The notes under the pieces: model-generated
The model's database searches: none
What the model was told of the DNA's origin: nothing
Seen by the model: the letters and a program-made list of their open reading frames with translations, nothing else
From: Mycobacteriales bacterium
Lineage (GTDB): Bacteria; Actinomycetota; Actinomycetes; JAFAQI01
Assembly: GCA_035550655.1 (NCBI GenBank)
Contig: DASZOU010000037.1
Span: 19,159 to 83,158 of the forward strand
Reading direction: 5' to 3'
DNA: 64,000 bases
In this document: in pieces, positions 3,592 to 42,785 of the stretch
How positions within the stretch are numbered: position 1 is the first letter of the stretch
Layout: the number at the start of each line of letters is the position of its first letter
Translations under genes and position numbers: made by a program

Positions 3592-4344
3592 TCAGACGTG
3601 CGCCTTGACCAGGCGCCGCTGTCCGGCCGCGTCCAGCACCGTGAACCGGACCGATCCCTTGGTGCCTTGAACGCGCCGGGTCACGACGATCCGCACCTTG
3701 TTGCGGCCGCCCTTGAAGTGCTTCGAACCCGGTTTGCCGAGGTTCCACTTGCAGTGACGAAGCTTCACGTTGCTAAGACCGGTGATCCGGCTGCCGCGCG
3801 CGAACATCATGATCACCACCCGGGTCGGGTGACGTTCTGTCGCCGTCTCGTGGCGGAAGCCCACCGTCGGGGTGTGAGCCGTCGCTGACGGGCTCGGCGT
3901 CGGAGTGGCGGTCGCTGTCGGATGGGTCGCCGTAGGAGTGGGTGTGGGGGTGCTGGTCACGGTCGACGTGGGGCTGGGCGAGACCGTCTGCGAAGGGCTG
4001 GGTGAGGCACTCGGCGACGACGTCGAGCAGAGCCCGGGCAACGGGATCGGGAGGGGGCACGAGTCCGACGATGTCGACGTCGCCGTAGCGGTCGCCGTTG
4101 CCGTCGCCGTCGCCGTCGCGGTCGTAGTGGCGGTGGTGCTCGCCGTCGGCGACGAGGAGTCGCAGACGCCGGGCAGCGGGAGCGGGACAGGGCAGGCCGC
4201 TGCCGGTGCGGCGGCGGGAGCCGAGGCCGGGCCTGCGGGAGCCGCCTGTGCCGCGACGATCCCGACGCCGGTGATCCCTGTGGCCGCGGCCGCGACGGCG
4301 AGGAGGGCCACGCGGTATCGCGCGGTCGGTGTCAGTTCGCGCAT
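3592..4344 (-). CDS. secreted Thr/Ala/Pro/Ser-rich protein with small basic C-terminal domain
   Basis: 250-aa ORF with a signal peptide (MRELTPTARYRVALLAVAAAATG) and a long TATATATAT / SPSPT low-complexity linker encoded by a GCCGTC-type hexamer repeat. C-terminal 90 aa are basic and globular-looking. No family recognised. Confidence 0.55.
   Translation of the reverse strand: MRELTPTARYRVALLAVAAAATGITGVGIVAAQAAPAGPASAPAAAPAAACPVPLPLPGVCDSSSPTASTTATTTATATATATATATATSTSSDSCPLPIPLPGLCSTSSPSASPSPSQTVSPSPTSTVTSTPTPTPTATHPTATATPTPSPSATAHTPTVGFRHETATERHPTRVVIMMFARGSRITGLSNVKLRHCKWNLGKPGSKHFKGGRNKVRIVVTRRVQGTKGSVRFTVLDAAGQRRLVKAHV
4075..4140. repeat. imperfect GCCGTC/GTCGCC hexanucleotide tandem repeat inside the coding sequence
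   Basis: About 9 to 10 units encode the (TA)n/(AT)n tract of the Thr/Ala-rich secreted protein at 3592..4344. The repeat is frame-preserving. Confidence 0.6.
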
Positions 4345-4412
4345 GTCGGCCTCAGCTGCTCGAGGGACTGGTCCCTAGACATTCGACGCGGCCGCGGCCC
4401 CTCCTGCCGCCG

Positions 4413-7214
4413 TTAGTGCTTGAACGTGTAGTCCCACACGCCGCGGCCGTAGGCCCCGAGCACGAGGTGCTTTCCGTCGAGCGAGAGCGCCATGCTCCGG
4501 AAGGTCACCTCGGGAAGCCCGGTGCCGAACCGCCTCCAGTGCTTGCTTCCCGCCTTGGCGGTGAACACGCCCACGTCCGTCGCGGCGTACAGCTGACCCG
4601 ACCGCAGGATCAGCCGGTGCACATCGGCCCGCGGCAGGTTGCCGGACAGGTCGTGGAAGGTGTTGCCGCCGTCATGGCTTACCAGCACCTTCGCCGAGCC
4701 GACCGCCTTGTCGCTGGTGCCCATGACGATCATCTGGCGCATCCCGACGTAGATCGTCCTCGGGTCCTTCGGGTCGACCGCGATCTCACCGACCTGCTGA
4801 TGCGGCAGGCCCTTCGAGGCGGCCATATGCCAGCACTTCGGGCTGGCGACAGCGTTCGCGCACCCCGGCTTCACGTTGGTGGCGATCTTCGTGATCACCT
4901 TCTTGGGCGTCGCGGCGGTGCCGGTGGCCAGCGAGGGCCGGCACACCGAGCAGAACGCGACGTACGACGTCTTGCCCTGCGTGTACACGGCGGTCGAGTC
5001 CCACGTGCCGTTCGGTGCCTTGCCCGGCGTGAAGACGGTCTTCCAGGTGGAGCTGAGCAGCTCCTCCTCCGTCGGGTCGTAGGTGTTGCTCGCCATGCCG
5101 AACGTCGTCTCGTCGACGTTGCCCGCCGCCGCGATCAGGTGGTTCGGGTTGGTCCGGTCCACCCACCACGGCGAGAGGAAGGTCGCCCCCGTCGCGTTGT
5201 CCTCCGGAGTCACGTTGATCGTGTGTTTGAAGTCGTCGGTGGTGCCGAGAATCGTCTGGCCGTCGATGCCGCAGTAGTACGAGTGCGCGTTCGCGCCCGG
5301 GAAGACGTAGACGCCGTCACCGCCGCACACCTGGTACGCCGTGCCGTTCGGCATCACGTGCGCGACGCCGTTGTCCTGGAGGGCCAGCAGGTAGGACCCG
5401 TCCTGCAGCCGCGTCACGTCCCACGGCAGGACGGTTGCCGGCGCGTTCAGCGATTGCCACGACGAGTTGTCGAAGCCCTGGTAGGCGACACCCGTCGTGT
5501 CGCTGACACTGTGGCTGTTCTGCGCCCACCAGCCGCCGTCGTTGCCGCTGTAGAAGCGCTCGCCATGCGCCGTGACGGCGATCGCAGCGCTGTGCTGGTC
5601 GGGGTGAGTTGTTCCCTTGCCGTACTCGGGGACGACCGACGGGCACGCGATGCCATTGCTGTTGGGGATCGTGTTGAAGTAGGTGAGGAAGCCGCACACG
5701 TTCGCGTACTTCTCGACCGCCGTGAAGGTGGTCGCGAGCGGCACGTTGGTGTTGGTCGGGCCGTGGTACTCGCCGGTGAAGGCCTCCTCCAGCCCGATGT
5801 AGACCCGGTTCGGGTCCTTGCCGTCCGCGAGGACCCAGTTGTTGTACGACGCCTGCACGCCTTCGGCATAGCTGAGCGGGTACCCCACGAGCCCGGTCGC
5901 GGCGCCGAGCGCCGTCGTCAGGGTCTGGGAGTTCGCCTGCAGCTGCCAAGTCTTGCCGTCGTCATTGGAGCGGTAGAGCCCGTTGAGCTCGGTGTTGCCG
6001 TCGACCACGACAGGAAGCACCGGGTTGTCGATCGTCAGGTGATCACCAGCCGCCCGGCCGGCGTCCTGCACGAGCGCCCAGAGGACGTTCTTCCCCGCGC
6101 CCTGGACCGGGCTGTAGGCCAGGCTGATCCGGCCGAGCGGGTCGCTGGAGGCCAACGGCTGGGTGAGCTGGCTGTTGCTCGCCATGTAGCTGAAGGTGCG
6201 GCCGTAGTTCTCCGACCGGTACAGCCCGTTGCGGGGTGCCAGCACCTTGCCGCCGTACGTCTTCTTGCCGAAGGCATAGCCGACGTCCGCGGTGATCTCC
6301 CGCGGGTTGGACGGGTTGATCGCGATCGACGCGAGCCAGTTGCCCAGCCCGTACTTGGCGTGGTCGGGCAGCGCTACCCGGTGGAAGCTGCGACCGTGGT
6401 CGGTCGAGCGCCACAGGCCGTACGTCGTCCCGACGAGGACGTCGCCGTTGCTGGGGTCGACGGCCACTGCGTTGGTGCCGTAACCGTGGACGTTGGCCTT
6501 GGGTCGCGTCCAGGTCTTGCCGCCGTTGCGCGAGACGTAGACGCCGGTCCCCGCCGCGTCATCGGAGAGCGTGAAGATCGAGACGCCGGTACCGAGGTAG
6601 AGCAGCTTCGGGTTGTGCGGATCGACAGCGATCGCGCCGACTGCCTCCCGAGCGATCTTGCCCTCGGTGATGTTGTGCACCGTCTCGCCGCCGTTGGTCG
6701 TCTTGTAGAGCCCGCCGATCGTGCCGAGGTACACGGTGTTGCCGGAACGGTCGTTGGGGTCTACGACCATCGCGGTGCCGATCCCGCCGACCTTGCCGAG
6801 CAGCTCCGCGCCGCTACCGGTGCCGAGGATGTCCTTGACCCCGTGGAACGGCCCCTTGTTCTGCCAGGCGCCTCCCGTCGAGCCGAGGCTCGCGGCCTGG
6901 TGGGTGAGGTGCAGGAAACGCTCGTCGGTGTTGCCCTGGTACAGCACGTTCCCGATCGGGCTCATCGCCTCGCCGGCATCAGGGTCGCCGCCGCCATCCG
7001 CGTCGGCGTCGCCGCCCGCATCGGCGTCGCCGCCCGCGTCCTGGTCGCCGAGGGTCTGCTTCGGATACAGCCGATGCGCCCAGAACTGCGAGCTCGGGAT
7101 CCCGATTGCAGGAGCGTGCGCTTCGTGGTCACCGACCGACCTTGCGATCAGGGTGCCGCTGCCGGCCAGGATTACGGCCACCGACGCGGCGGCCAGGAGG
7201 CGCAGACGACTCAT
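4413..7214 (-). CDS. secreted BNR/Asp-box repeat beta-propeller protein (sialidase / GH74-like glycoside hydrolase family)
   Basis: 933-aa ORF with a signal peptide. It carries multiple Asp-box motifs S-x-D-x-G-x-T-(W/F): SRNGGKTW, STDHGRSF, SENYGRTF, SNDDGKTW, SHDGGNTF. An acidic DAGGDA repeat follows the signal peptide. Confidence 0.7.
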   Translation of the reverse strand: MSRLRLLAAASVAVILAGSGTLIARSVGDHEAHAPAIGIPSSQFWAHRLYPKQTLGDQDAGGDADAGGDADADGGGDPDAGEAMSPIGNVLYQGNTDERFLHLTHQAASLGSTGGAWQNKGPFHGVKDILGTGSGAELLGKVGGIGTAMVVDPNDRSGNTVYLGTIGGLYKTTNGGETVHNITEGKIAREAVGAIAVDPHNPKLLYLGTGVSIFTLSDDAAGTGVYVSRNGGKTWTRPKANVHGYGTNAVAVDPSNGDVLVGTTYGLWRSTDHGRSFHRVALPDHAKYGLGNWLASIAINPSNPREITADVGYAFGKKTYGGKVLAPRNGLYRSENYGRTFSYMASNSQLTQPLASSDPLGRISLAYSPVQGAGKNVLWALVQDAGRAAGDHLTIDNPVLPVVVDGNTELNGLYRSNDDGKTWQLQANSQTLTTALGAATGLVGYPLSYAEGVQASYNNWVLADGKDPNRVYIGLEEAFTGEYHGPTNTNVPLATTFTAVEKYANVCGFLTYFNTIPNSNGIACPSVVPEYGKGTTHPDQHSAAIAVTAHGERFYSGNDGGWWAQNSHSVSDTTGVAYQGFDNSSWQSLNAPATVLPWDVTRLQDGSYLLALQDNGVAHVMPNGTAYQVCGGDGVYVFPGANAHSYYCGIDGQTILGTTDDFKHTINVTPEDNATGATFLSPWWVDRTNPNHLIAAAGNVDETTFGMASNTYDPTEEELLSSTWKTVFTPGKAPNGTWDSTAVYTQGKTSYVAFCSVCRPSLATGTAATPKKVITKIATNVKPGCANAVASPKCWHMAASKGLPHQQVGEIAVDPKDPRTIYVGMRQMIVMGTSDKAVGSAKVLVSHDGGNTFHDLSGNLPRADVHRLILRSGQLYAATDVGVFTAKAGSKHWRRFGTGLPEVTFRSMALSLDGKHLVLGAYGRGVWDYTFKH

Positions 7215-10340: not shown

Positions 10341-11489
10341 GTGACAGGGCCGCTTCGCGGCGTGAAGGTGATCGAGCTCGCCGGCATCGGCCCCGGACCG
10401 TACGCCTGCATGCTGCTGGCGGACCTCGGTGCCGAGGTACTGCGGCTGGAGCGGCCGCGCGGAACGATCTCGGGGGTGATCGGCGGGTACGACGTGCTCG
10501 CTCGTGGCCGGCGCTCCGTCGCGATCGACTTGAAGGCGCCAGGCGCTCGCGAGCTCGTGCTCGATCTCGCACAGGAAGCCGACGTCATCGTCGAGGCGTT
10601 TCGCCCAGGTGTCGCAGAGCGCCTGGGGATCGGGCCCGACGACTGCCTGGGCGCGAACCCGAAGGTCGTCTATGCGCGGATGACCGGCTGGGGCCAGGAA
10701 GGCCCGCTCGCTGACCGCGTCGGCCACGACATCAACTACGCGTCGATCACCGGCGCGATCGCGGCGGTCGGCGAGAAGGACCGCAAGCCCGTGCCGCCGC
10801 TGAACCTCGTGGCCGACTTCGGCGGCGGTTCGATGTTCTGCGTCATGGGCATCCTCGCCGCGCTGATCGAACGGCAGTCCAGCGGCAAGGGTCAGGTCAT
10901 CGACGTCGCGATGGTGGACGGCGTCACCAGCCTGCTGTCGATGGCGCACGGCCAGCGCGGCGCGGGCATGATGCCGGACGCGCGGGGCAGCAGCCTGCTC
11001 GACGGTGGCGCGCCGTACTACGACACCTATCGCTGCTCCGACGGCGAGTACATGTCGGTGGGCGCGATCGAGCCGCAGTTCTACGAGGCGCTGAAGCAGA
11101 CCCTCGAGCTGCCGGATCTGCCGGCGCAGTCAGACCACGCGAGCTGGCCGAAGATCCGGGAGATGCTCGCCGAGAAGTTCGCGACCAAGACCCGCGACGA
11201 GTGGGCCGCGATCTTCGACGAGGTCGACGCCTGCGTCGCGCCGGTGCTGTGGCTCTCCGAAGCTCAGCACCACCCGCATCTGGTCGCGCGCGGCACGCTG
11301 GTCGACGTCGGCGGAGTCGTCCAGCCGGCCCCCGCCCCGCGCTTCTCGCGCACCCCCGGGCAGATCGGTGCGCCGCCGAAGGCGCCGGGGTCGGACACCG
11401 TGGCAGCGCTCACGGACTGGGGCATCGACGAGACCCGGATCGAGAAGCTCCAAGCCGACAACGCGGTGGTCCAGGTCGAGTCCAGCTAG
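10341..11489 (+). CDS. CaiB/BaiF family III CoA-transferase (alpha-methylacyl-CoA racemase-like)
   Basis: Start trimmed to an in-frame GTG just after the upstream stop. The N-terminus LRGVKVIELAGIGPGPYACMLLADLGAEV and the central VAD...GG blocks are typical of the CoA-transferase III/Mcr family. Confidence 0.75.
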   Translation: MTGPLRGVKVIELAGIGPGPYACMLLADLGAEVLRLERPRGTISGVIGGYDVLARGRRSVAIDLKAPGARELVLDLAQEADVIVEAFRPGVAERLGIGPDDCLGANPKVVYARMTGWGQEGPLADRVGHDINYASITGAIAAVGEKDRKPVPPLNLVADFGGGSMFCVMGILAALIERQSSGKGQVIDVAMVDGVTSLLSMAHGQRGAGMMPDARGSSLLDGGAPYYDTYRCSDGEYMSVGAIEPQFYEALKQTLELPDLPAQSDHASWPKIREMLAEKFATKTRDEWAAIFDEVDACVAPVLWLSEAQHHPHLVARGTLVDVGGVVQPAPAPRFSRTPGQIGAPPKAPGSDTVAALTDWGIDETRIEKLQADNAVVQVESS

Positions 11490-18434: not shown

Positions 18435-18531
18435 GAGGCTGATCGCATGTGACATTGGTGTCGCGAATCGCGACGTCTATGTGACATGCGCGTCGTGATT
18501 CACCGCCCCTATGTGACATGCGGGCGAGGCG
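18435..18531. repeat. structured intergenic repeat, copy 1
   Basis: Three copies of the ATGTGACAT near-palindrome sit at 18447, 18479 and 18511 (32-bp period). The perfect palindrome GTCGCGAATCGCGAC lies between copies 1 and 2. Copy 1 is homologous, in reverse complement, to 34995..35095. Confidence 0.8.
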
Positions 18532-29960: not shown

Positions 29961-30692
29961 ATGAGCGACCGGGTTGCCCTCGTCACCGGCTCGACGTCGG
30001 GGATCGGGAAGGCCGTTGTCGAGCGCTTCGTCCGCGACGGCCTGCAGGTCGTGGTCAACTCGGCGAAGTCGATCGATGCCGGCCAGGCGATGGTGGCTGA
30101 GCTCGGGGCGGATCGCACACACTACGTGCAGGGCGACATCGCCGAGGCTGCCGACGCGCAACGGATCGTCGACGAGACGATCGCGAAGTTCGGCCGGCTC
30201 GACGTACTCGTCAACAACGCGGGGACGACCCAGCGGATCCCGCACGACGACTTCGCCACCGCGTCACCGGACGTCTTCCGGCGGCTGTACGACGTCAACG
30301 TCGTCGGGACCTGGCAGACAACGGTCGCGGCGATCCCTCACCTTAAGGAGTCGGGCGCCGGCTGCATCGTGAACGTCACCTCGCTCGCCGGCGTCCGCCC
30401 GACGGGATCCTCCATCCCCTATGCAGTCAGCAAGGCGGCGATGAACCACCTGACGCTGCTGCTCGCCAACACGCTCGCGCCGACGGTTCGCGTCAACGCC
30501 GTAGCGCCGGGGCTGGTCGACACTCCGTGGACGGCGGAGTGGACCGACCTGCACGAGGCGATCAAGTTCATGGCGCCGATGGGCCGGGCCGCGCAGCCGG
30601 ACGACATCGCCGAAGTGGTCGCGACGCTGACCGACTCGACGTACGTCACGGGCCAGGTCTGGGTGATCGACGGCGGCCTCGCCCTCCGTTGA
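29961..30692 (+). CDS. SDR family oxidoreductase
   Basis: MSDRVALVTGSTSGIGKAV and YAVSKAA motifs. It is tandem to the previous SDR. Confidence 0.85.
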   Translation: MSDRVALVTGSTSGIGKAVVERFVRDGLQVVVNSAKSIDAGQAMVAELGADRTHYVQGDIAEAADAQRIVDETIAKFGRLDVLVNNAGTTQRIPHDDFATASPDVFRRLYDVNVVGTWQTTVAAIPHLKESGAGCIVNVTSLAGVRPTGSSIPYAVSKAAMNHLTLLLANTLAPTVRVNAVAPGLVDTPWTAEWTDLHEAIKFMAPMGRAAQPDDIAEVVATLTDSTYVTGQVWVIDGGLALR

Positions 30693-30729
30693 CGGGCTGG
30701 AGCGGCACCTCTCGAGCGTTGGTGCGTGC

Positions 30730-30802
30730 CAAGCAATGTGGCATTGCCCCAGTGATTTCCTCGAAATCTGAGGGAACTGGTCATGCAATGCCACATTGCT
30801 TG
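30730..30802. promoter_or_regulatory. AT-rich nested palindrome: 18-bp perfect inverted repeat around an inner hairpin; candidate bidirectional terminator or operator pair
   Basis: CAAGCAATGTGGCATTGC at 30730..30747 is the exact reverse complement of 30785..30802. Each arm is itself palindromic (GCAATG-NNN-CATTGC). The spacer contains the palindrome GATTTCCTCGAAATC and flanking CCAGT/ACTGG. The site lies between the convergent SDR and phosphotransferase genes. Confidence 0.6.
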
Positions 30803-30820
30803 CGCGATCGGTAGCGCCCG

Positions 30821-31914
30821 TTACAGGCCGTTGGTGAGGGCGGCGTTGCCGGCGTTGACCAGCGGCGCGATTCGCACCGCCATCTCGACGAACCCGTCGC
30901 CGATCATCGCGCCGGCGAGCCCGCGCGCCGCCACACCAGCGATGATCGCTGCGAGCTTGAAGCACGCGAACGCGACGTACCACGGCATCTCGCTGAGGTC
31001 ACGACCGCTGCTCTTCGCGTAGCGGTCGAGCAGCTCGCGCCGAGTCGGGAACCCCGGCAGCGTCGTGACCGTCGGCAGCACGCCCGCCGTCAGCTCGCTG
31101 GTCTCGTCGCCGGCGTCCTGCCAGTAGATGTAGAACATGCCGAGGTCGGCGAGCGGGTCGCCGAGGGTCGACAGCTCCCAGTCGAGGACCGCAGCGATCC
31201 GGCCCGGCGTGGTCGGGTCGAGCATCACGTTGTCCATGCGGTAGTCGCCGTGCACGATCGGGCCTGTCGGGGCCGCCGGAACCCTTGCCGTCAGCCGCTC
31301 GGCGAGCCGGTCGAGGTCGCTGCCATCTCCTTGGAGCGCGTCACGCGTCGCCTGCCACTGCGTCGTCCAGCGCCGGATCTGGCGCTCGAGATAGCCGTCG
31401 GGCTTTCCGTAGTCACCGAGACCGACCTCTGCCGGCTCCACCGCGTGGAGGTCGGCCATGACATCGATCAACCCGTGCGCGATCGCCAGCCGTTCCTCGG
31501 GTGACTCCGCGTAGCCGTCCGGCAGCGTGTCCCGGACGATGTGGCCGACGACGCGTTCCATCACGTAGAACGGCGCACCGATCACGTCCTCGTCGGTGCA
31601 CATGGCGAGCGTGGGTGGAACCGGCACCGGCGTCGGCCCGAGCGCCGTCATCACGCGGTGCTCACGCCCCATGTCGTGCGCGGTCGGCAGCCGGTTCGAC
31701 AGCGGCGGGCGCCGCAGCACCGCCTCGCCGGCTGCGGAGGTGACACCGAAGGTCAGGTTCGACTTGCCCCCGGAGATGAGCTCGAGCCGGCAGTCACGCC
31801 AGCCGTCGTCACCGAGCTGCTCGGCCAGGTAGCGCCCGACCGCCTCGCGCGGAACGGCCTGCTCGGTCAGGGTGGCAAGATCCGCTTCTGTCACGGGACG
31901 GTACGTTACCGACA
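30821..31914 (-). CDS. phosphotransferase family protein (APH/choline-kinase-like fold)
   Basis: The start is ATG at 31914 or GTG at 31894. [10 protein letters not shown] matches the Brenner motif HGDxxxxN, and the DWE block is also present. Confidence 0.7.
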
Positions 31915-33182
31915 TCCACGCCGACTCACTTCTCGCGCACGACGCCGCGCACGTGTGGCATCCGTACGCCGCGATGCCGGCGAGCCCCGCGCCGTACCTG
32001 GTCGACAGCGCGAGCGGGGTACGCATCCGGCTGCGCGACGGCACCGAGCTGATCGACGGCATGGCGAGCTGGTGGGCTGCGATCCACGGCTACCGGCACC
32101 CGGTCCTCGATGCCGCCGCACATGCCCAGCTCGACCGGATGTCGCACGTGATGTTCGGCGGGCTCACCCACGAGCCCGCGATCAAGCTCTCCGAGGAGCT
32201 CCTCGCGATCGTCCCGGCGCCACTGCGCCGCGTCTTCTTCGCCGACTCGGGATCGGTCGCCGTCGAGGTGGCGATCAAGATGGCATTGCAGTACTGGCAG
32301 GCCTGCGACCGCCCCGCGCGCAACCGGCTGCTCACGATCCGCGGCGGCTACCACGGGGACACGTTCATGGCGATGTCCGTGTGCGACCCGGTCGGCGGCA
32401 TGCATCACCTGTTCACCGGTGCGCTGACCGAGCAGGTGTTCGCGCCGATGCCGCCCGTCGAGGCGGGCGACGAGCAGTGGCGATCGCAGACCGCCGACCT
32501 CGTCGAGCGGCACAGCGACTCGCTCGCCGCCGTCATCGTCGAGCCGGTGGTGCAGGGCGCCGGCGGGATGCGCTTCTACAGCCCTGCGTACGTCGATCAC
32601 CTGCGCGCACTGTGTGACCGGCACGGCTTGTTGCTGATCCTCGACGAGATCGCCACCGGCTTCGGTCGGACCGGCACGATGTTCGCGGCCGAGCACTCCG
32701 CGACCTCCCCCGACATCATGTGCGTCGGCAAGGCGCTCACCGGCGGCTACCTCTCGATGGCAGCCACCTTGTGCACCGATGCCGTCGCCGACGCGATCAG
32801 CTCGGGTCCGGGCGGTGCCTTCATGCACGGCCCGACGTTCATGGCCAACCCGCTCGCAGCGGCGATCGCCGCGGCAAGCCTCGAGCTGCTGCACACCAAC
32901 GACTGGAAGGCGCAGGTCGGGCGCGCCGAGACCGCGCTGAAGGACGGGCTGGCACCGGCGCTGGAGCTCGACGGGGTTGCCGACGTCCGGGTTTGCGGCG
33001 CGATCGGGGTGATCGAGCTGGCCGATGCGGTGGACGTCGACCGCGTGACGAGGCGGGCGATGAGCGAGGGCGTGTGGCTCCGGCCGTTCCGTAACCTCAT
33101 CTACGCCATGCCGCCCTACATCTGCACCGAGGACGACCTCGCCACGATCTGCCGCGCAATGGTCGCCGCCGCCGCAGCATGA
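31872..33182 (+). CDS. bioA: adenosylmethionine-8-amino-7-oxononanoate aminotransferase
   Basis: [17 protein letters not shown] and the PLP-lysine block [11 protein letters not shown] are present. It is followed by bioF and bioD. Its start overlaps the divergent phosphotransferase start. Confidence 0.85.
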
Positions 33183-34312
33183 GCCGCGCGTACGACGAGT
33201 GGCTCGCAGCAGTTGCGCGCCACCGGCAGGCGGAGGGCCTGTCCCGACATCTCACCCATCGGCGCAGCGGTGACCACCTCATCGACGTCGCGAGCAACGA
33301 CTACCTCGGGCTCGCGACCGACCCGCGGGTGCTGACGGCAGCCCAGGAAGCACTCACGGCCTGGGGTGCCGGCTCGACCGGATCCCGGCTGGTGACAGGA
33401 AGCACCGCGCTGCACGAGGAGCTCGAGACCGCGCTGACGTCGTTCGCCGGCGGTGAGGCGGCACTCGTCTTCTCGTCCGGCTACACCGCCAACCTCGGAT
33501 TGATCACCGCCCTCGGCGGATCGGACACGCTGATCGTCTCCGATGCGCACAACCACGCGTCGATCATCGATGCCTGCCGGTTGTCGCGGTCGCGCGTGGT
33601 CGTCAACCCGCATCGCGACCTCGCCGCCGTCGACGTGGCGCTCGCCACGCGTAGCGAGCAACGGGCGCTTGTCGTGGTGGACGCCGTGTTCAGCACCGAC
33701 GGCACAACCGCTGATTTGACCGCGTTGCATGACGTCTGCCGGCGGCGCGATGCGGTGCTGGTCATCGACGAGGCGCACTCGGTGGGGGTGCTCGGGCCGG
33801 GCGGTCGAGGCATCGCGCACGCCGCAGGCATCGCTGACGCACCGGACGTCATCCGCACGGTGACGCTGTCCAAGGCGCTCGGCAGCCAGGGCGGTGCCGT
33901 GCTCGGGTCGGCCGCCGTGATCGACCACCTCATCAACACCGCGCGGACCTTCATCTTCGACACCGGGCTGGCTCCGGCATGCGTTGCAGCTGCGCATACC
34001 GCGATCACCGTGGTTGCCGCTGAGCCGGATCTCGTGTCGAGAGTCGGTCACTGCCGGGATGAGATCGCGACGGCCCTCGATGTCCCGACCCCCGCCGGCG
34101 CAGTGGTCTCGCTGGTGCTCGGCAACCCGGCGCTGACCGTCACGGTCGCTGACGCTTGCCGTGACGCCGGTGTCGTCGTCGGCTGCTTCCGGCCGCCTTC
34201 GGTTCCGCCCGACGGAAGCCGGCTTCGGCTCACCGCGCGGGCGAGCCTCACCGATGTGGAGGTCAAGGAGGCCACATCGGTCGTCCTCGAGGCGATCGAG
34301 CGGCTGCGGTGA
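33179..34312 (+). CDS. bioF: 8-amino-7-oxononanoate synthase
   Basis: [18 protein letters not shown] and [11 protein letters not shown] (PLP lysine) are present. It has a 4-nt overlap with the bioA stop. Confidence 0.85.
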
Positions 34313-35010
34313 AGCGCCTCGTCGTCACCGGGACCGGAACGGAGATCGGCAAGACGATCGTCACCGCCGCCCTCGCGGCTCTTGCGCGAGCAGCTGGGCA
34401 GCGAGTGGCGGTCGTCAAGGCCGCGCAGACCGGGATCGAGCCCGGCGACGAGAGCGACACCGACGTCGTCACCCGACTGTCCGGGGTCGACGACGTGCAC
34501 GAGCTGGTGAGGTATCCGGCCCCGCTTGCACCGGCGAGTGCGGCCCGTCTGGTCGGCATCCCAGCGACGCCGGTGGCCGAGCTGGCTCGCCGTACGGCGG
34601 CGATCACCGGCCGCGACCTGGTCCTGATCGAAGGCGCGGGTGGTTTGCTCGTCCGGTTCGACGCGGACGGCGCGACGATGGCAGACCTCGCGGCGGACCT
34701 CGGCGCCGAGGTGCTGGTCGTCGCTCCCGCCGGCCTCGGGACCCTCAACTCGACGGCGCTCACCTGCCGGGAGCTGCGGCGGCGCTCCCTCACGTGCGCG
34801 GGAGTCGTCGTCGGCTCCTGGCCCGCAGCTCCCGACCTGGCATCGCGTACGAACCTCGACGACCTGCCGTCGTACGCCGAAGCGCCACTGCTCGGCGTGC
34901 TACCCGCGGGCCTCGGGACCGTCGACCGGCGGACCTTTCTCGAAGCTGCCCGCGCCGGGCTCGCCCCCGAGCTGGGCGGCGGGTGGCACCGCCCCGCGAC
35001 ACCTATGTGA
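34309..35010 (+). CDS. bioD: dethiobiotin synthetase
   Basis: GTG start overlapping the bioF stop. P-loop VTGTGTEIGKT and IEGAGG are present. The TGA stop lies inside the first ATGTGACAT repeat unit. Confidence 0.85.
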   Translation: MKRLVVTGTGTEIGKTIVTAALAALARAAGQRVAVVKAAQTGIEPGDESDTDVVTRLSGVDDVHELVRYPAPLAPASAARLVGIPATPVAELARRTAAITGRDLVLIEGAGGLLVRFDADGATMADLAADLGAEVLVVAPAGLGTLNSTALTCRELRRRSLTCAGVVVGSWPAAPDLASRTNLDDLPSYAEAPLLGVLPAGLGTVDRRTFLEAARAGLAPELGGGWHRPATPM

Positions 35011-35095
35011 CATACGGGTCGTGAATCGCGACACCTGTGTGACATACGGGCGGCTTTTCACAACACCTATGTGACATGCGATCAGCCTCTTGCGT
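34995..35095. repeat. structured intergenic repeat, copy 2 (inverted relative to copy 1)
   Basis: ATGTGACAT-type units sit at 35005, 35037 (GTGTGACAT) and 35068, with a 31-32 bp period. GTCGTGAATCGCGAC lies between units. The end GCGATCAGCCTC is the reverse complement of the GAGGCTGATCGC end of copy 1 and contains the stop codon of the convergent thioesterase gene. Confidence 0.8.
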
Positions 35096-35606
35096 CGTTC
35101 GGCGGAGCGCCCGGCTCGTCCGGCGCCTGGTAACGACCAGCCCGCCCCTCCGCCGGCAGTACCACCTGCGTGCATCGGCTGGTGGCCAGCACCTCCCCCG
35201 GGATCTCGCCTCGGTAGAGCTCCGCGGCACAGAACACCACCCGCCGGGTACGGCGCACCACCCAGCCTTTCGCCGACAGCGTGCCGACTTCCGCCGACCG
35301 GAGGAACTCGACCCGCAGGTCCGCGGTGAGGAACGCCTGGTCACGATCGAGCACGGTCCAGCAGGCGCCCCCCATCGCGGCATCGAGCAGTGCGGTCACG
35401 AGTCCGCCCTGCACGATCGGCCCACCCGCGGTGCGGAAGCAGTAGTCAGGCGTCGCGTCCCAAGCGATCGTCGTACCGCCCGGTTCCCACGCGAGGCGTC
35501 GATAGCCGAGCGTCGCCCACAGGTGCGGCGGCGTCGCCCTCGCGTGGTCCCACTGGTCGGCATCGGCGAAGCGCTCGCCGGGTGCGATGCGTGGTGGCTC
35601 GCTCAC
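35082..35606 (-). CDS. PaaI/hotdog-fold thioesterase
   Basis: 174-aa ORF. GGLVTALLDAAMGGA and the downstream hotdog core suggest the 4HBT/PaaI family. Confidence 0.65.
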   Translation of the reverse strand: MSEPPRIAPGERFADADQWDHARATPPHLWATLGYRRLAWEPGGTTIAWDATPDYCFRTAGGPIVQGGLVTALLDAAMGGACWTVLDRDQAFLTADLRVEFLRSAEVGTLSAKGWVVRRTRRVVFCAAELYRGEIPGEVLATSRCTQVVLPAEGRAGRYQAPDEPGAPPNDARG

Positions 35607-41921: not shown

Positions 41922-41994
41922 CGCGCCCGGCAGGGATCGAACCTGCGACCAACTGCTTAGAAGGCAGTCGCTCTATCCGCTGAGCTACGGGCGC
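41922..41994 (-). tRNA. tRNA-Arg (anticodon TCT)
   Basis: The reverse complement folds as a cloverleaf: acceptor GCGCCCG/CGGGCGC, D arm GCTC...GAGC, anticodon stem ACTGC/GCAGT with loop CTTCTAA, T arm GCAGG-TTCGATC-CCTGC, discriminator G. No CCA is encoded. Confidence 0.85.
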
Positions 41995-42708: not shown

Positions 42709-42785
42709 GGTGGGTGTAGCTCAGCTGGTAGAGCACCGGGTTGTGGTCCCGGGTGTCGCGGGTTCAAGTCCCGTCACTCACCCCA
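42709..42785 (+). tRNA. tRNA-His (anticodon GTG) with encoded G-1 and 3' CCA
   Basis: G-1 pairs with C73. Acceptor GTGGGTG/CACTCAC, anticodon stem CCGGG/CCCGG with loop TTGTGGT, T arm GCGGG-TTCAAGT-CCCGT. CCA is encoded. Confidence 0.9.

Follow-up and report, generated by a model that had tools for sequence, protein, structure and literature searches.

To our knowledge, repeats of the REP/REPIN type have been characterized almost entirely in Proteobacteria. The ends of IS200/IS605-family elements are subterminal hairpins that are recognized as single-stranded DNA, and no target duplication is generated. REPINs are inverted doublets of REP units that are held at a fixed distance, contain a less conserved spacer, can adopt a hairpin or "clover" fold and occur in ordered tandem clusters (PMC3116915). 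In the portions cited here, a survey of REPs carrying the GTAG/CGTC tag places them after the ends of coding regions, where the adjacent open reading frames are unidirectional or convergent, and makes no mention of actinobacterial taxa (PMC3733652). The palindromic "tuberculosis Rho-independent terminator" (TRIT) is reported to be restricted to Mycobacterium (Gardner et al. 2011, PMC3152330). Its roughly 150 copies are located near gene ends, at a position of about -8 relative to the stop codon.

A nested palindrome was analysed between two convergent genes encoding a short-chain dehydrogenase/reductase (SDR) and an APH-family phosphotransferase. It is contained in the window, which is the whole 64-kb stretch of DNA that was analysed. 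The element is probably one member of a lineage-specific family of REP doublets (REPIN-like) and not a purpose-built terminator or operator.

Anatomy of the element and its gene junction

The features of the locus and of two further repeat arrays in the window are listed in the table.

Table. Positions of the nested palindrome, the adjoining genes and two further repeat arrays in the window
Feature	Position	Strand	Remarks
SDR gene	29961..30692	+	Pfam adh_short_C2, E 3e-52; 3' end 37 nt from left arm
SDR-APH intergenic region	30693..30820	.	128 nt between stop codons; ~125 nt extra relative to L001 and L003
Left arm (putative REP unit), CAAGCAATGTGGCATTGC	30730..30747	+	6-3-6 palindrome GCAATG-TGG-CATTGC at 30733-30747
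37-nt spacer	30748..30784	.	Two alternative inner hairpins possible
GATTT in spacer	30754-30758		Semi-conserved GAWTY motif of the family, 11 nt after ATGTGGC
Right arm (putative REP unit)	30785..30802	-	Exact reverse complement of left arm
APH-family phosphotransferase gene	30821..31918	-	Pfam APH, E 4e-48; 3' end 18 nt from right arm
Three ATGTGACAT cores, 32-bp spacing	18435..18519	.	Between convergent aminopeptidase-like gene (ends 18434) and PLD-like gene
ATGTGACAT / TGTGACAT cores, period 32	34999..35089	.	Between convergent bioD (ends 35010) and 4HBT thioesterase gene (ends 35082)

A sequence-only reading of the window had described the element as an AT-rich nested palindrome, and most of this anatomy was confirmed. 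The arms form a perfect 18-bp inverted repeat, each arm is internally palindromic, and the spacer is composed of CCAGT, GATTTC-CTC-GAAATC and ACTGG. The GC content of the 73-nt element is 0.49, compared with 0.69 for the window. No other perfect inverted repeat of at least 18 bp within 120 bp is present in the window, and the arm 18-mer, when up to three mismatches are allowed, is found there at two places only, which are the two arms (expected, 0.01). The element codes for nothing at the SDR/APH locus. The APH gene probably starts at 31918; its longest open reading frame reaches 32062, and its homologues are 356-365 aa long.

Folding of the region 30715-30825 on both strands gave predicted energies of -59.9 kcal/mol (z -7.4) for the plus strand and -49.1 kcal/mol (z -5.7) for the minus strand. 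The perfect hairpin of about 75 nt that had been proposed was overstated, as perfect pairing is limited to the 18-bp outer stem and internal loops are present inside it. The minimum free energy fold favours an alternative 7-bp inner stem (UUCCUCG.../...UGAGGGAA) over the GATTTC/GAAATC stem.

The element is not conserved at the orthologous sites of the closest relatives. In L001 (94% identity in APH) and L003 (84%), alignment and gene tables place the two stop codons 3 bp apart, and the window copy is an insertion relative to these close relatives. Other relatives carry a 49-bp hairpin, a GGDEF gene (L002/L094) or a related doublet at the SDR/APH junction. In L093, the junction is occupied by a doublet with an ATGTSACAT core and the same 52-bp spacing, which is a member of a different subfamily; its cores align in register with those of the window element, and the spacers of the two are about as dissimilar as those of paralogues. 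L001 and L003 thus have an empty site, the window carries the element there and L093 a member of another subfamily, as expected of insertion or excision differences between genomes. The element makes up 73-77 nt of the ~125 extra nt between SDR and APH, whereas the remaining ~50 nt (30693-30729 and 30803-30820) are lineage-specific and not accounted for by it. An origin of these ~50 nt from the L002/L094 GGDEF gene, or from the flanks of other family copies, was considered and rejected, as blastn-short matched the arms only. A 13-nt similarity that flanks the window copy (CGTTGGTGCGTGC / CGTTGGTGAGGGC) does not extend and was judged to be a chance match, not a target duplication.

The sequence-only reading had suggested a strong bidirectional intrinsic terminator. 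Such a terminator, evolved in place to separate the SDR and APH transcripts, would fit the location between convergent stop codons (30690-30692 for SDR and 30821-30823 for APH) and the very stable hairpin predicted on both strands, and TRIT palindromes near gene ends have been read as terminators in Mycobacterium (PMC3152330). However, the bases that follow the stem, CGCGATCGG on the plus strand and GCACGCACC on the minus strand, contain no U-tract, which is reported as required by mycobacterial RNA polymerase in the cited portion of PMC3993855. The stem is 49% GC, and a terminator scan of 30300-31300 returned no terminator-like sites. A 3-bp gap between the genes suffices in close relatives, and canonical terminators exist in the lineage, since in a relative bioD is followed by a GC-rich hairpin that has a T-rich tail. 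The sequence also belongs to a dispersed repeat family, described below, and so did not evolve in place. An origin as a terminator is considered quite improbable on these grounds.

Distribution and geometry of the repeat family

The arm 18-mer is a multi-copy sequence. It was detected at 25 loci in four Frankiales/Mycobacteriales MAGs (15 in Frankiales JAICXJ, 7 in Mycobacteriales DASZTL, 2 in JAFAZI and 1 in DATAVE) and in 14 contigs of the soil metagenome Ga0164242. The remaining 19 matches to the 18-mer are singles in unrelated taxa, with about 17 estimated by chance. The loci of the exact 18-mer hold 2-7 sites each (at least 15 loci in JAICXJ, 7 in DASZTL and 14 contigs of Ga0164242). A profile from which the window was left out still recovered the window copy, with E 1e-16. 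The nested palindrome belongs to a dispersed, multi-copy family in uncultured soil actinobacteria. The source genome was viewed through its 64 kb, which hold one doublet of the exact subfamily and two probably related arrays. Searches for the element in plasmid, phage and viral-contig collections gave no match, and in a literature search the motif strings matched unrelated primers only.

The family shares several properties with REP/BIME sequences. The unit CAAGCAATGTGGCATTGC(TTG) is a short palindrome of 6-3-6 to 9-3-9, many dispersed extragenic copies are present in JAICXJ, DASZTL and Ga0164242, and the copies form regularly spaced clusters of alternating orientation. The neighbours of the repeats are housekeeping genes that represent 120 different Pfam families, none of which is recurrent. 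By a crude gene call, the 3' end of a gene faces the element in most loci. The tally of neighbour orientations (convergent/tandem/divergent, ~8/15/3-4) is indicative only, as it comes from a crude GC3-based gene caller by which the APH side of the window itself was mis-called. The alternative offered earlier, a pair of operator sites, does not agree with this distribution: a motif found beside dozens of unrelated housekeeping genes, mostly past their 3' ends, argues against a classical operator pair.

The spacing of the sites is strict. Among 58 distinct pairs of adjacent sites, 36 are separated by 51-52 bp and 19 by 30-32 bp, which together account for 55 of the 58. The sites are arranged as inverted doublets or as runs of 52-bp units in tandem that end in an inverted site (+-, ++-, ++++- and +++++-). 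All 19 inverted doublets (19/19) have a spacing of exactly 52 bp, with no indel despite heavy substitution, which points to a length constraint on the spacer. Divergence from the consensus is 7.8% in the non-ascertained arm versus 39% in the spacer, and the mean pairwise identity of the spacers is 51% versus 30% for shuffles. Across the family, 92.5% of the arm helix is paired compared with 56.6% of the spacer, and the intra-arm hairpins are 97.5% paired (17 copies). Inverted doublets that have a fixed spacing, can fold into hairpins and have arms more conserved than the spacer are the arrangement seen in REPINs.

The RNA reading offered earlier, as a small structured RNA gene or a cis-regulatory RNA, would account for the strong structure predicted at the window copy. 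It is extremely improbable in view of the family as a whole, in which the spacer lacks both conservation and a consistent structure: the spacers fold on average no better than shuffles (mean z -0.8), and the spacer helix shows no covariation beyond controls. Strand symmetry leaves no defined orientation for a gene, and no promoter-like site was found. A scan of the window with Rfam 15 at the gathering threshold detected two tRNAs only; the matches at the locus are sub-threshold and miRNA-precursor-like (13-18 bits, E 0.17 or worse).

The flanks of at least 15 copies contain no consistent target-site duplication and show only a G/C extension of the palindrome. The outer flank has the consensus (G/C)C-CAAG, and the inner flank is variable and is followed by GCGATT. 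A conventional MITE, which would derive from a DDE-type insertion sequence by internal deletion, have the 18-bp arms as its terminal inverted repeats and be moved by the transposase of the full-length element, would be small (73-77 nt, as here), flanked by perfect terminal inverted repeats, polymorphic in insertion and present in multiple copies. This interpretation is nevertheless very unlikely. The arms resemble terminal inverted repeats, but they are palindromes themselves and are also found as singlets or as units in direct tandem, and no consistent fixed-length duplication accompanies them. Neither a longer element with the same ends, or parent insertion sequence, nor a transposase was found in any fetched locus, and the plasmid, phage and viral collections held no parent element.

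The GAWTY sequence is a second semi-conserved motif and is located at a fixed centre distance of 16 bp. The spacings of 31, 52, 64 and 82 bp all fall close to a multiple of 10.4 bp. Arms and spacing of this kind could represent paired sites in duplex DNA for a dimeric host protein (nucleoid-associated, architectural or regulatory), bound on the same helical face and kept by host-level selection instead of transposition. The 6-3-6 palindrome of each arm is typical of dimer sites, the centre distances (52, 30-32, 64 and 82 bp) fit duplex binding as well as they fit transposition, the arms are about five times better conserved than the spacers in old-looking copies, the spacer has a fixed length without conserved sequence or structure, and GAWTY keeps its distance. 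Binding by host proteins is also compatible with a REP origin, since E. coli BIMEs are reported in the cited portion of PMC2817692 to be bound by several proteins. Against such sites as the primary explanation, most copies are located shortly after the 3' end of a gene, beside housekeeping genes with no relation to one another and not at promoters, and their presence at orthologous sites is polymorphic. Whole 52-bp units and half-units are amplified in tandem, a recurrent asymmetric variant (GCAATGTGGCATCAC) breaks the palindrome, and no candidate protein was found. Host-protein sites are thus regarded as a rather unlikely explanation.

The sequence-only reading had called the doublet unrelated to the ATGTSACAT repeats of the window, which is probably wrong, because the cores differ at one of nine bases. 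The layout ATGTGRC-N11-GAWTY is common to the doublet family and the ATGTSACAT repeats, and GCAATGTGACATTGC variants are intermixed with GCAATGTGGCATTGC in the same arrays of relatives. A profile HMM of the doublet family gave a marginal match to the ATGTGACAT arrays (18435..18519, E 0.33). From the shared layout and the doublet in L093, the ATGTGACAT arrays probably belong to the same superfamily as the doublet. The second array (34999..35089) was found by TRF with a period of 32 and 2.5 copies.

The outermost ~24 nt of the two ATGTGACAT arrays are inverted copies. A 16.6-kb transposon bounded by the arrays was considered and rejected, as the gene order across both boundaries is the synteny of the relatives (AI-2E transporter, PLD, SSB, ABC-F and others). 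Each array is simply located at a convergent gene junction.

Search for a mobilizing enzyme and possible mode of spread

In REPIN-RAYT systems, the cognate RAYT gene, which encodes a Y1 HUH transposase and is usually present in a single copy, is flanked by the REPs. A tblastn search with E. coli RayT against the window and 46 high-GC loci (a few hundred kb) gave no match below E 0.8. The best match (E 0.81) is in L030, in an open reading frame that is not RAYT-like and does not encode a Y1 protein. Pfam analysis of 103 + 10 + 5 open reading frames adjoining the repeats revealed no transposase among the families listed. The open reading frames in gene-poor gaps by repeat clusters (L017, L022-L024 and L035) encode a response regulator, Ham1, DUF4229 and a MerR-type HTH protein, and were rejected as transposase candidates. 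A 325-aa open reading frame bracketed by two doublets (L034/L052) matched nothing in Pfam, NCBIfam or PDB, had no paralogue at the other loci and was also rejected. Its C-terminus, when inspected by eye, appears to resemble Vsr/DUF559-type nucleases. A literature search for REPIN/RAYT in Actinobacteria returned nothing relevant. Membership in a RAYT system is putative, since no RAYT or other transposase was found in the DNA examined and the repeats have no GTAG/CGTC tag.

In the preferred reading as a REP doublet, two inverted 18-nt units, each a small hairpin or palindrome, would be kept at a distance of exactly 52 bp by a spacer of low conservation. The copies may spread, or may formerly have spread, as single-stranded hairpin DNA, with both REP hairpins recognized by an enzyme that acts in trans. 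By analogy with REPIN/RAYT and IS200/IS605, this enzyme would most likely be a Y1 HUH-type transposase. Spread in this manner would account for the conservation of the arms, for the fixed geometry and for the missing target duplications. Most copies appear old, judging from their strongly diverged spacers. Perfect arms in old copies are not expected from plain selfish transposition and would require host-level selection or conversion.

A more speculative possibility, which we regard as rather unlikely, is a RAYT-independent, REPIN-like system of actinobacteria. In such a system, near-invariant and helically phased palindromes (52 bp, ~5 turns; 31 bp, ~3 turns) with free-running spacers would be kept by host-level selection or conversion, either as paired sites for a dimeric protein or spread by an undescribed hairpin-specific enzyme. 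We know of no domesticated repeat/protein partnership of this kind described in the phylum, and the system, if real, would be a new one.

Under the REP-doublet reading, transcription from either side would passively supply a very stable hairpin without a U-tract. As a side effect, and not as the origin of the element, this hairpin could shield the SDR and APH mRNAs at their 3' ends or impede read-through between the convergent genes. Exaptation for secondary termination or 3'-end protection is possible, and, given the missing U-tract, a role as terminator or RNA stabilizer is possible only as a by-product. Of the earlier proposals, the anatomy and a possible effect on RNA 3' ends were retained, whereas none of the terminator, operator and structured RNA identities is the best explanation, and the dispersed repeat family had been missed.

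Significance and comparison with described systems

The presence of this family in uncultured Frankiales/Mycobacteriales would extend the REP/REPIN phenomenon to high-GC Gram-positive bacteria. The family is distinguished by its own unit sequence, a strict 52/31-bp geometry and the absence, so far, of any transposase associated with it. Caution is needed in annotating AT-richer "perfect hairpins" at convergent gene junctions of actinobacteria, as these may be inserted repeats rather than dedicated terminators or operators. The element could be used as a polymorphic marker at the strain level. If the arms are protein-binding sites under host selection, the family would offer a tractable case of selfish palindromes becoming host components.

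The hairpin ends and the absence of target duplication are shared with IS200/IS605 elements, whereas no TnpA/TnpB gene with these ends was seen, and the flanks give G/C only, with no conserved target tetranucleotide. The element resembles TRIT in being sequence-conserved and palindromic, and thus a bidirectional hairpin, in being repeated near gene ends, in occurring in the Mycobacteriales and in not looking like a classical terminator. It differs, in a comparison of position and description only, in that the stem begins 38 nt past the SDR stop and 19 nt past the APH stop and not around -8, and in being a doublet with a 37-nt spacer from another lineage.

Enterobacterial REP/BIME sequences, as described in the cited portions of Di Nocera et al. 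2013 (PMC3733652) and Nunvar et al. 2010 (PMC2817692), similarly have a palindromic unit of 20-40 bp, regular spacing and alternating orientation, lie downstream of genes between convergent or co-directional open reading frames, and have hypothesized roles in termination and mRNA stabilization. Instead of the GTAG or CGTC tag, the present family has (C)AAG outside the palindrome and GAWTY 11 nt inside; GTAG or ATAG is found in few copies only.

The REPINs of Pseudomonas fluorescens SBW25 and other RAYT-carrying Proteobacteria (Bertels & Rainey 2011, PMC3116915) differ in the distance between units, which is 71 or 110 bp there and 52 bp here. In the present family, the host is an actinobacterium, no RAYT was found in the DNA examined, the unit is shorter (a palindrome of 15-21 nt), the spacers are far more diverged than in a usual young REPIN population, and the spacings are near integral helical turns. 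Both groups consist of inverted doublets with a spacer less conserved than the REPs, a long hairpin or "clover" fold, extragenic location, tandem clusters and presence/absence differences between genomes.

The palindrome and its orthologous site

The palindrome at 30730-30802 is real and lies far beyond chance. Its two 18-bp arms enclose a 37-nt spacer in the 128-nt gap between the stop codons of a short-chain dehydrogenase (SDR) gene and an APH-family phosphotransferase gene, and they form the sole perfect inverted repeat of this arm length within 120 bp in the 64-kb window. Both arms contain GCAATG-TGG-CATTGC, and the spacer is composed of CCAGT, GATTTC-CTC-GAAATC and ACTGG. The 18-mer arm has no further site in the window with up to three mismatches (0.01 expected), and GCAATG-N3-CATTGC with up to two mismatches is confined to the element. 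The G+C content of the 73-nt element is 49%, compared with 69% for the window. The inverted repeat, palindromic arms, spacer layout, low local GC and convergent setting described in the sequence-only reading are thus confirmed. RNA folding of 111 nt around the element gave -59.9 kcal/mol (z -7.4) for the + strand and -49.1 kcal/mol (z -5.7) for the - strand. The predicted hairpin is therefore stable on both strands, but it is not the perfect 75-nt hairpin first described: perfect pairing is limited to the outer 18 bp, and the fold of lowest energy has a different inner stem of 7 bp.

Coordinates of the palindrome, its neighbours and related features
Feature	Sequence	Coordinates	Strand	Remarks
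SDR gene	window	29961-30692	+	left neighbour; stop codon borders gap
Left flank	window	30693-30729
Left arm	window	30730-30747		CAAGCAATGTGGCATTGC
Right arm	window	30785-30802		exact reverse complement of left arm
Right flank	window	30803-30820
APH gene	window	30821-31918	-	right neighbour; stop codon borders gap
Synteny break	window	31872-35606		versus L001, L003, L093, L094
ATGTGACAT array	window	18435-18519		cores 18447/18479/18511; between convergent aminopeptidase-like and PLD-like genes
ATGTGACAT array	window	34999-35089		cores 35005/(35037)/35069; at bioD/4HBT thioesterase convergent junction
tRNA gene	window	41922-41994	-
tRNA gene	window	42710-42782	+
Doublet	L093 (JGI 3300044679)	11099-11190		coordinates of the whole SDR/APH intergenic site; arms AACCGATGTCACATC... 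/ ...GATGTGACATTGGTT
Hairpin with T-rich tail	L094	6768-6873		3' of bioD; GGCCGGTCCGGGTTTCCGGGCCGGCCACTGTTCTTCTC; coordinates include the 17-bp tandem copies
Tandem expansion	L006	2600-2686		21-bp unit CACATTGCTTCGCAACCGGGT
Tandem expansion	L040	1-130		~28-bp unit including CTCAAGCAAT
Tandem expansion	L047	71-322		whole 52-bp units
Tandem expansion	L024	5313-5513		whole 52-bp units
Bracketed ORF region	L034 (L052 identical)	3973-5158
325-aa ORF	L034	4048-5025	-	unannotated

The APH protein has no identical database entry, and its best relatives are encoded by uncultured "Mycobacteriales bacterium" MAGs and soil metagenomes (94% to 75% identity). The two stop codons are 3 bp apart in loci L001 (94% APH identity) and L003 (84%), where the coding ends on either side of the junction can be aligned well to the window; the window's lineage therefore has about 125 extra bp, among them the palindrome. 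In L091 and L092 (84%) the stop-to-stop distance is 49 bp with a GC-rich hairpin inside, in L002 and L094 (87%) a GGDEF gene separates the stop codons, and in L093 (84%) the distance is 92 bp and contains another doublet. The palindrome is thus not conserved in the orthologous intergenic regions of this gene pair. The ATGTSACAT cores of the L093 doublet have a spacing of exactly 52 bp, and its predicted fold is a long hairpin like that of the window element. This doublet belongs to a different subfamily and represents either a second independent insertion or an ancient one with arms changed in concert. The SDR/APH junction is a hot spot.

About 50 nt of inserted intergenic DNA flank the doublet in the gap, with no match to family flanks, relatives' intergenic DNA or GGDEF-gene remnants. 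Subtraction of the 3-bp junction and the 73-nt element from 128 nt leaves 52 nt, the family unit length; no degenerate 52-nt unit is recognisable in this DNA. On the other side of APH, a 4HBT thioesterase gene abuts or overlaps it in L001, L003 and L093, and bioA-bioF-bioD adjoin it instead in the window and L094.

A strong bidirectional intrinsic terminator and a small structured RNA had also been suggested for the element. A dedicated bidirectional terminator is unlikely as its primary identity, because the stem is followed by no U-tract on either strand, a feature reported as necessary for mycobacterial RNA polymerase (PMC3993855), a canonical hairpin with a T-tract is present 3' of bioD in a relative, and close relatives have no spacer at this junction. 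No promoter-like or terminator-like site was found in 30300-31300. RNA 3'-end protection or damped convergent read-through would be a reasonable side effect at this site. The hairpin of L094 is GC-rich, and a 17-bp unit, AGTGCGCCCAGTCCTCT, is repeated in tandem about four times after it; this locus lacks a ATGTGACAT array 3' of bioD. The structured RNA found no support in Rfam, which contains no family for the element and returned generic miRNA-precursor hairpins (13-18 bits) at a permissive threshold. The tRNA genes are the window's only Rfam matches at the gathering threshold. The nearest actinobacterial analogue is TRIT, a conserved palindromic motif of Mycobacterium gene ends located at about -8 from stop codons and reported only in that genus (PMC3152330).

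A dispersed family of doublets

When 185,579 species-representative genomes (596 Gb) were scanned for exact matches to the 18-mer arm, 44 loci were identified. Four MAGs account for 25 of them, namely Frankiales LS_FP_2_bin.109 (15 loci), Mycobacteriales SMAG_U6075 (7), Frankiaceae CP_BM_RX_R9_1 (2) and Mycobacteriales SMAG_U5591 (1). The remaining 19 are single matches in unrelated taxa, where about 17 are estimated by chance under uniform base composition. Six of these share one conserved context in Candidatus Acidiferrales MAGs (L004, L015, L028, L038, L039 and L041), with the 18-mer once per genome and no second site nearby; these matches seem to mark a conserved single-copy region with no relation to the family. 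A metagenome scan added 14 contigs from sample Ga0164242, several of which duplicate SMAG_U6075 loci, and a few others. The 18-mer was absent from the viral contigs, plasmids and phages searched, and the motif strings appear in the searchable literature only as unrelated primers. A profile HMM built from relatives, with the window excluded, recovered the window copy on both strands (E 1e-16).

Sites mapped with the 15-nt core (up to two mismatches) cluster in groups of 2-7. Among 58 distinct adjacent pairs, the spacing is 51-52 bp in 36, 30-32 bp in 19 and different in three. Type I clusters, inverted doublets at exactly 52 bp, occur in the window, SMAG_U6075, Ga0164242 and SMAG_U5591. Type II clusters, found in LS_FP_2_bin.109, contain tandem 52-bp units followed by an inverted site 30-31 bp on (e.g., +++++- in L047). 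Tandem expansions seeded by repeat units are also present, including 4.1 perfect copies of a unit derived from half a REP (repetitive extragenic palindrome) in L006 and 4-5 repeats in L047 and L024.

Divergence was measured on 15 non-redundant type I copies using the arm not used for retrieval. The arm differs from its consensus by 7.8%, whereas the 37-nt spacer differs by 39%; pairs of spacers are on average 51% identical, compared with 30% for shuffles. No indel was found in 19 inverted doublets, against a rough, uncomputed neutral expectation of about one per copy, and spacer length therefore seems constrained despite heavy substitution. Within the spacer, only two stretches survive: GCGATT (positions 5-10) and another GATT/AATC around 26-32, direct or inverted. 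Spacers of the 15 copies fold on average no better than shuffles (mean z -0.8), the window copy being the most structured (z -3.1). Across 17 aligned copies, pairing reaches 92.5% in the inter-arm helix, 56.6% in the symmetric spacer helix (no excess over shuffles) and 97.5% in the intra-arm hairpins; the latter show three double-sided changes, mostly from the L093 subfamily, compared with 0/500 shuffles. Both arms of a doublet in L008 read GCGATG...CATCGC, with four coordinated changes. An asymmetric variant, ...CATCAC, recurs in the family, so palindromy is not absolute. All that the flanks share is a G/C extension of the stem; a consistent target duplication was not found in them.

The main rival explanation, which we consider improbable, is that a dimeric host protein binds the arms as a pair of sites. 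The copies look old, with spacers near saturation and arms still perfect. The spacings of 31, 52, 64 and 82 bp are close to multiples of 10.4 bp, a pattern that proteins bound to a single face of the DNA duplex would produce; with so few values, which are also interdependent, helical phasing is only suggestive. Age and spacing agree with maintenance by the host no less well than with selfish spread. This explanation is compatible with a REP origin, since published work reports binding of several host proteins to REP clusters (BIMEs; PMC2817692).

Relation to the ATGTSACAT arrays

The window also contains two ATGTGACAT arrays with a 32-bp period, which the sequence-only reading had judged unrelated to the palindrome. 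Their 9-nt core differs from ATGTGGCAT of the doublet by one base. The layout ATGTGRC-N11-GAWTY occurs without mismatch only at 18447, 18479, 30736 and 35005 in the window; with up to one mismatch it gives seven matches, all in the three repeat loci (0.8 expected, 0/100 shuffles), and it is present in 16 relatives' loci. Arrays of relatives intermix GCAATGTGACATTGC and GCGATGTGAC variants with GCAATGTGGCATTGC, and the L093 doublet combines ATGTSACAT cores with the 52-bp geometry. The HMM link is marginal (E 0.33). The arrays and the doublet family probably constitute one superfamily, contradicting the earlier judgement. A GAWTC motif lies exactly halfway between the array cores, e.g., inside the near-palindrome GTCGCGAATCGCGAC, and the outermost units, aagaggctgatcgcATGTGACAT and ATGTGACATgcgatcagcctctt, are inverted copies 16.6 kb apart.

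Genomic setting and likeness to REPINs

Matches of the 103 proteins from ORFs within 1.5 kb of clusters cover 120 different Pfam families with ordinary metabolic and housekeeping roles, the commonest being acyl-CoA dehydrogenase (4 members); no mobile-element family is among the matches listed. Crude gene calling based on GC3 places most clusters between a few and about 70 bp past a gene 3' end (about 8 convergent, 15 co-directional and 3-4 divergent); this placement is only indicative, since the method got the APH side of the window itself wrong. No REP-associated transposase (RAYT) was found when the window and 46 high-GC loci (a few hundred kb sampled) were searched by tblastn with E. coli RayT, and ORFs near clusters or in gene-poor gaps (a few hundred kb) gave no transposase in Pfam scans. 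In L034, two doublets tightly bracket a 325-aa ORF, at 6 bp and 64 bp, as REPINs (inverted REP doublets) bracket RAYT genes. Its product has no match in Pfam, NCBIfam or PDB; its C-terminal part resembles Vsr/DUF559-type nuclease motifs by eye only.

By analogy, the elements may move as single-stranded hairpins that a dimeric enzyme recognises in trans; such a mechanism would explain why the arms are conserved, the geometry is fixed and duplications are absent. Whole-genome data showing a RAYT-independent mechanism or a dedicated binding protein would raise the interest of the family.

REPINs are extragenic inverted REP pairs with a characteristic distance of 71 or 110 bp in Pseudomonas fluorescens, spacers less conserved than the REPs, a long hairpin or "clover" fold with each REP self-folded, and ordered tandem clusters (PMC3116915). 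REPs are reported to lie mainly 3' of genes, between convergent or co-directional ORFs (PMC3733652). Actinobacterial taxa go unmentioned in the survey in which the two described REP superfamilies, tagged GTAG and CGTC, were defined; the unit of the present family carries neither tag. Since the family properties match the published definition of REPINs and BIME-like clusters, 30730-30802 is read as a single member of a REPIN-like, lineage-specific family, inserted into the 3-bp SDR/APH gap. Each arm is a REP, which explains its palindromy, and the nested appearance comes from the inverted arrangement of the two REPs. The family is a dispersed palindromic repeat of the REP/REPIN-like kind; the kind is known, the family is new, and its host lineage is unusual.
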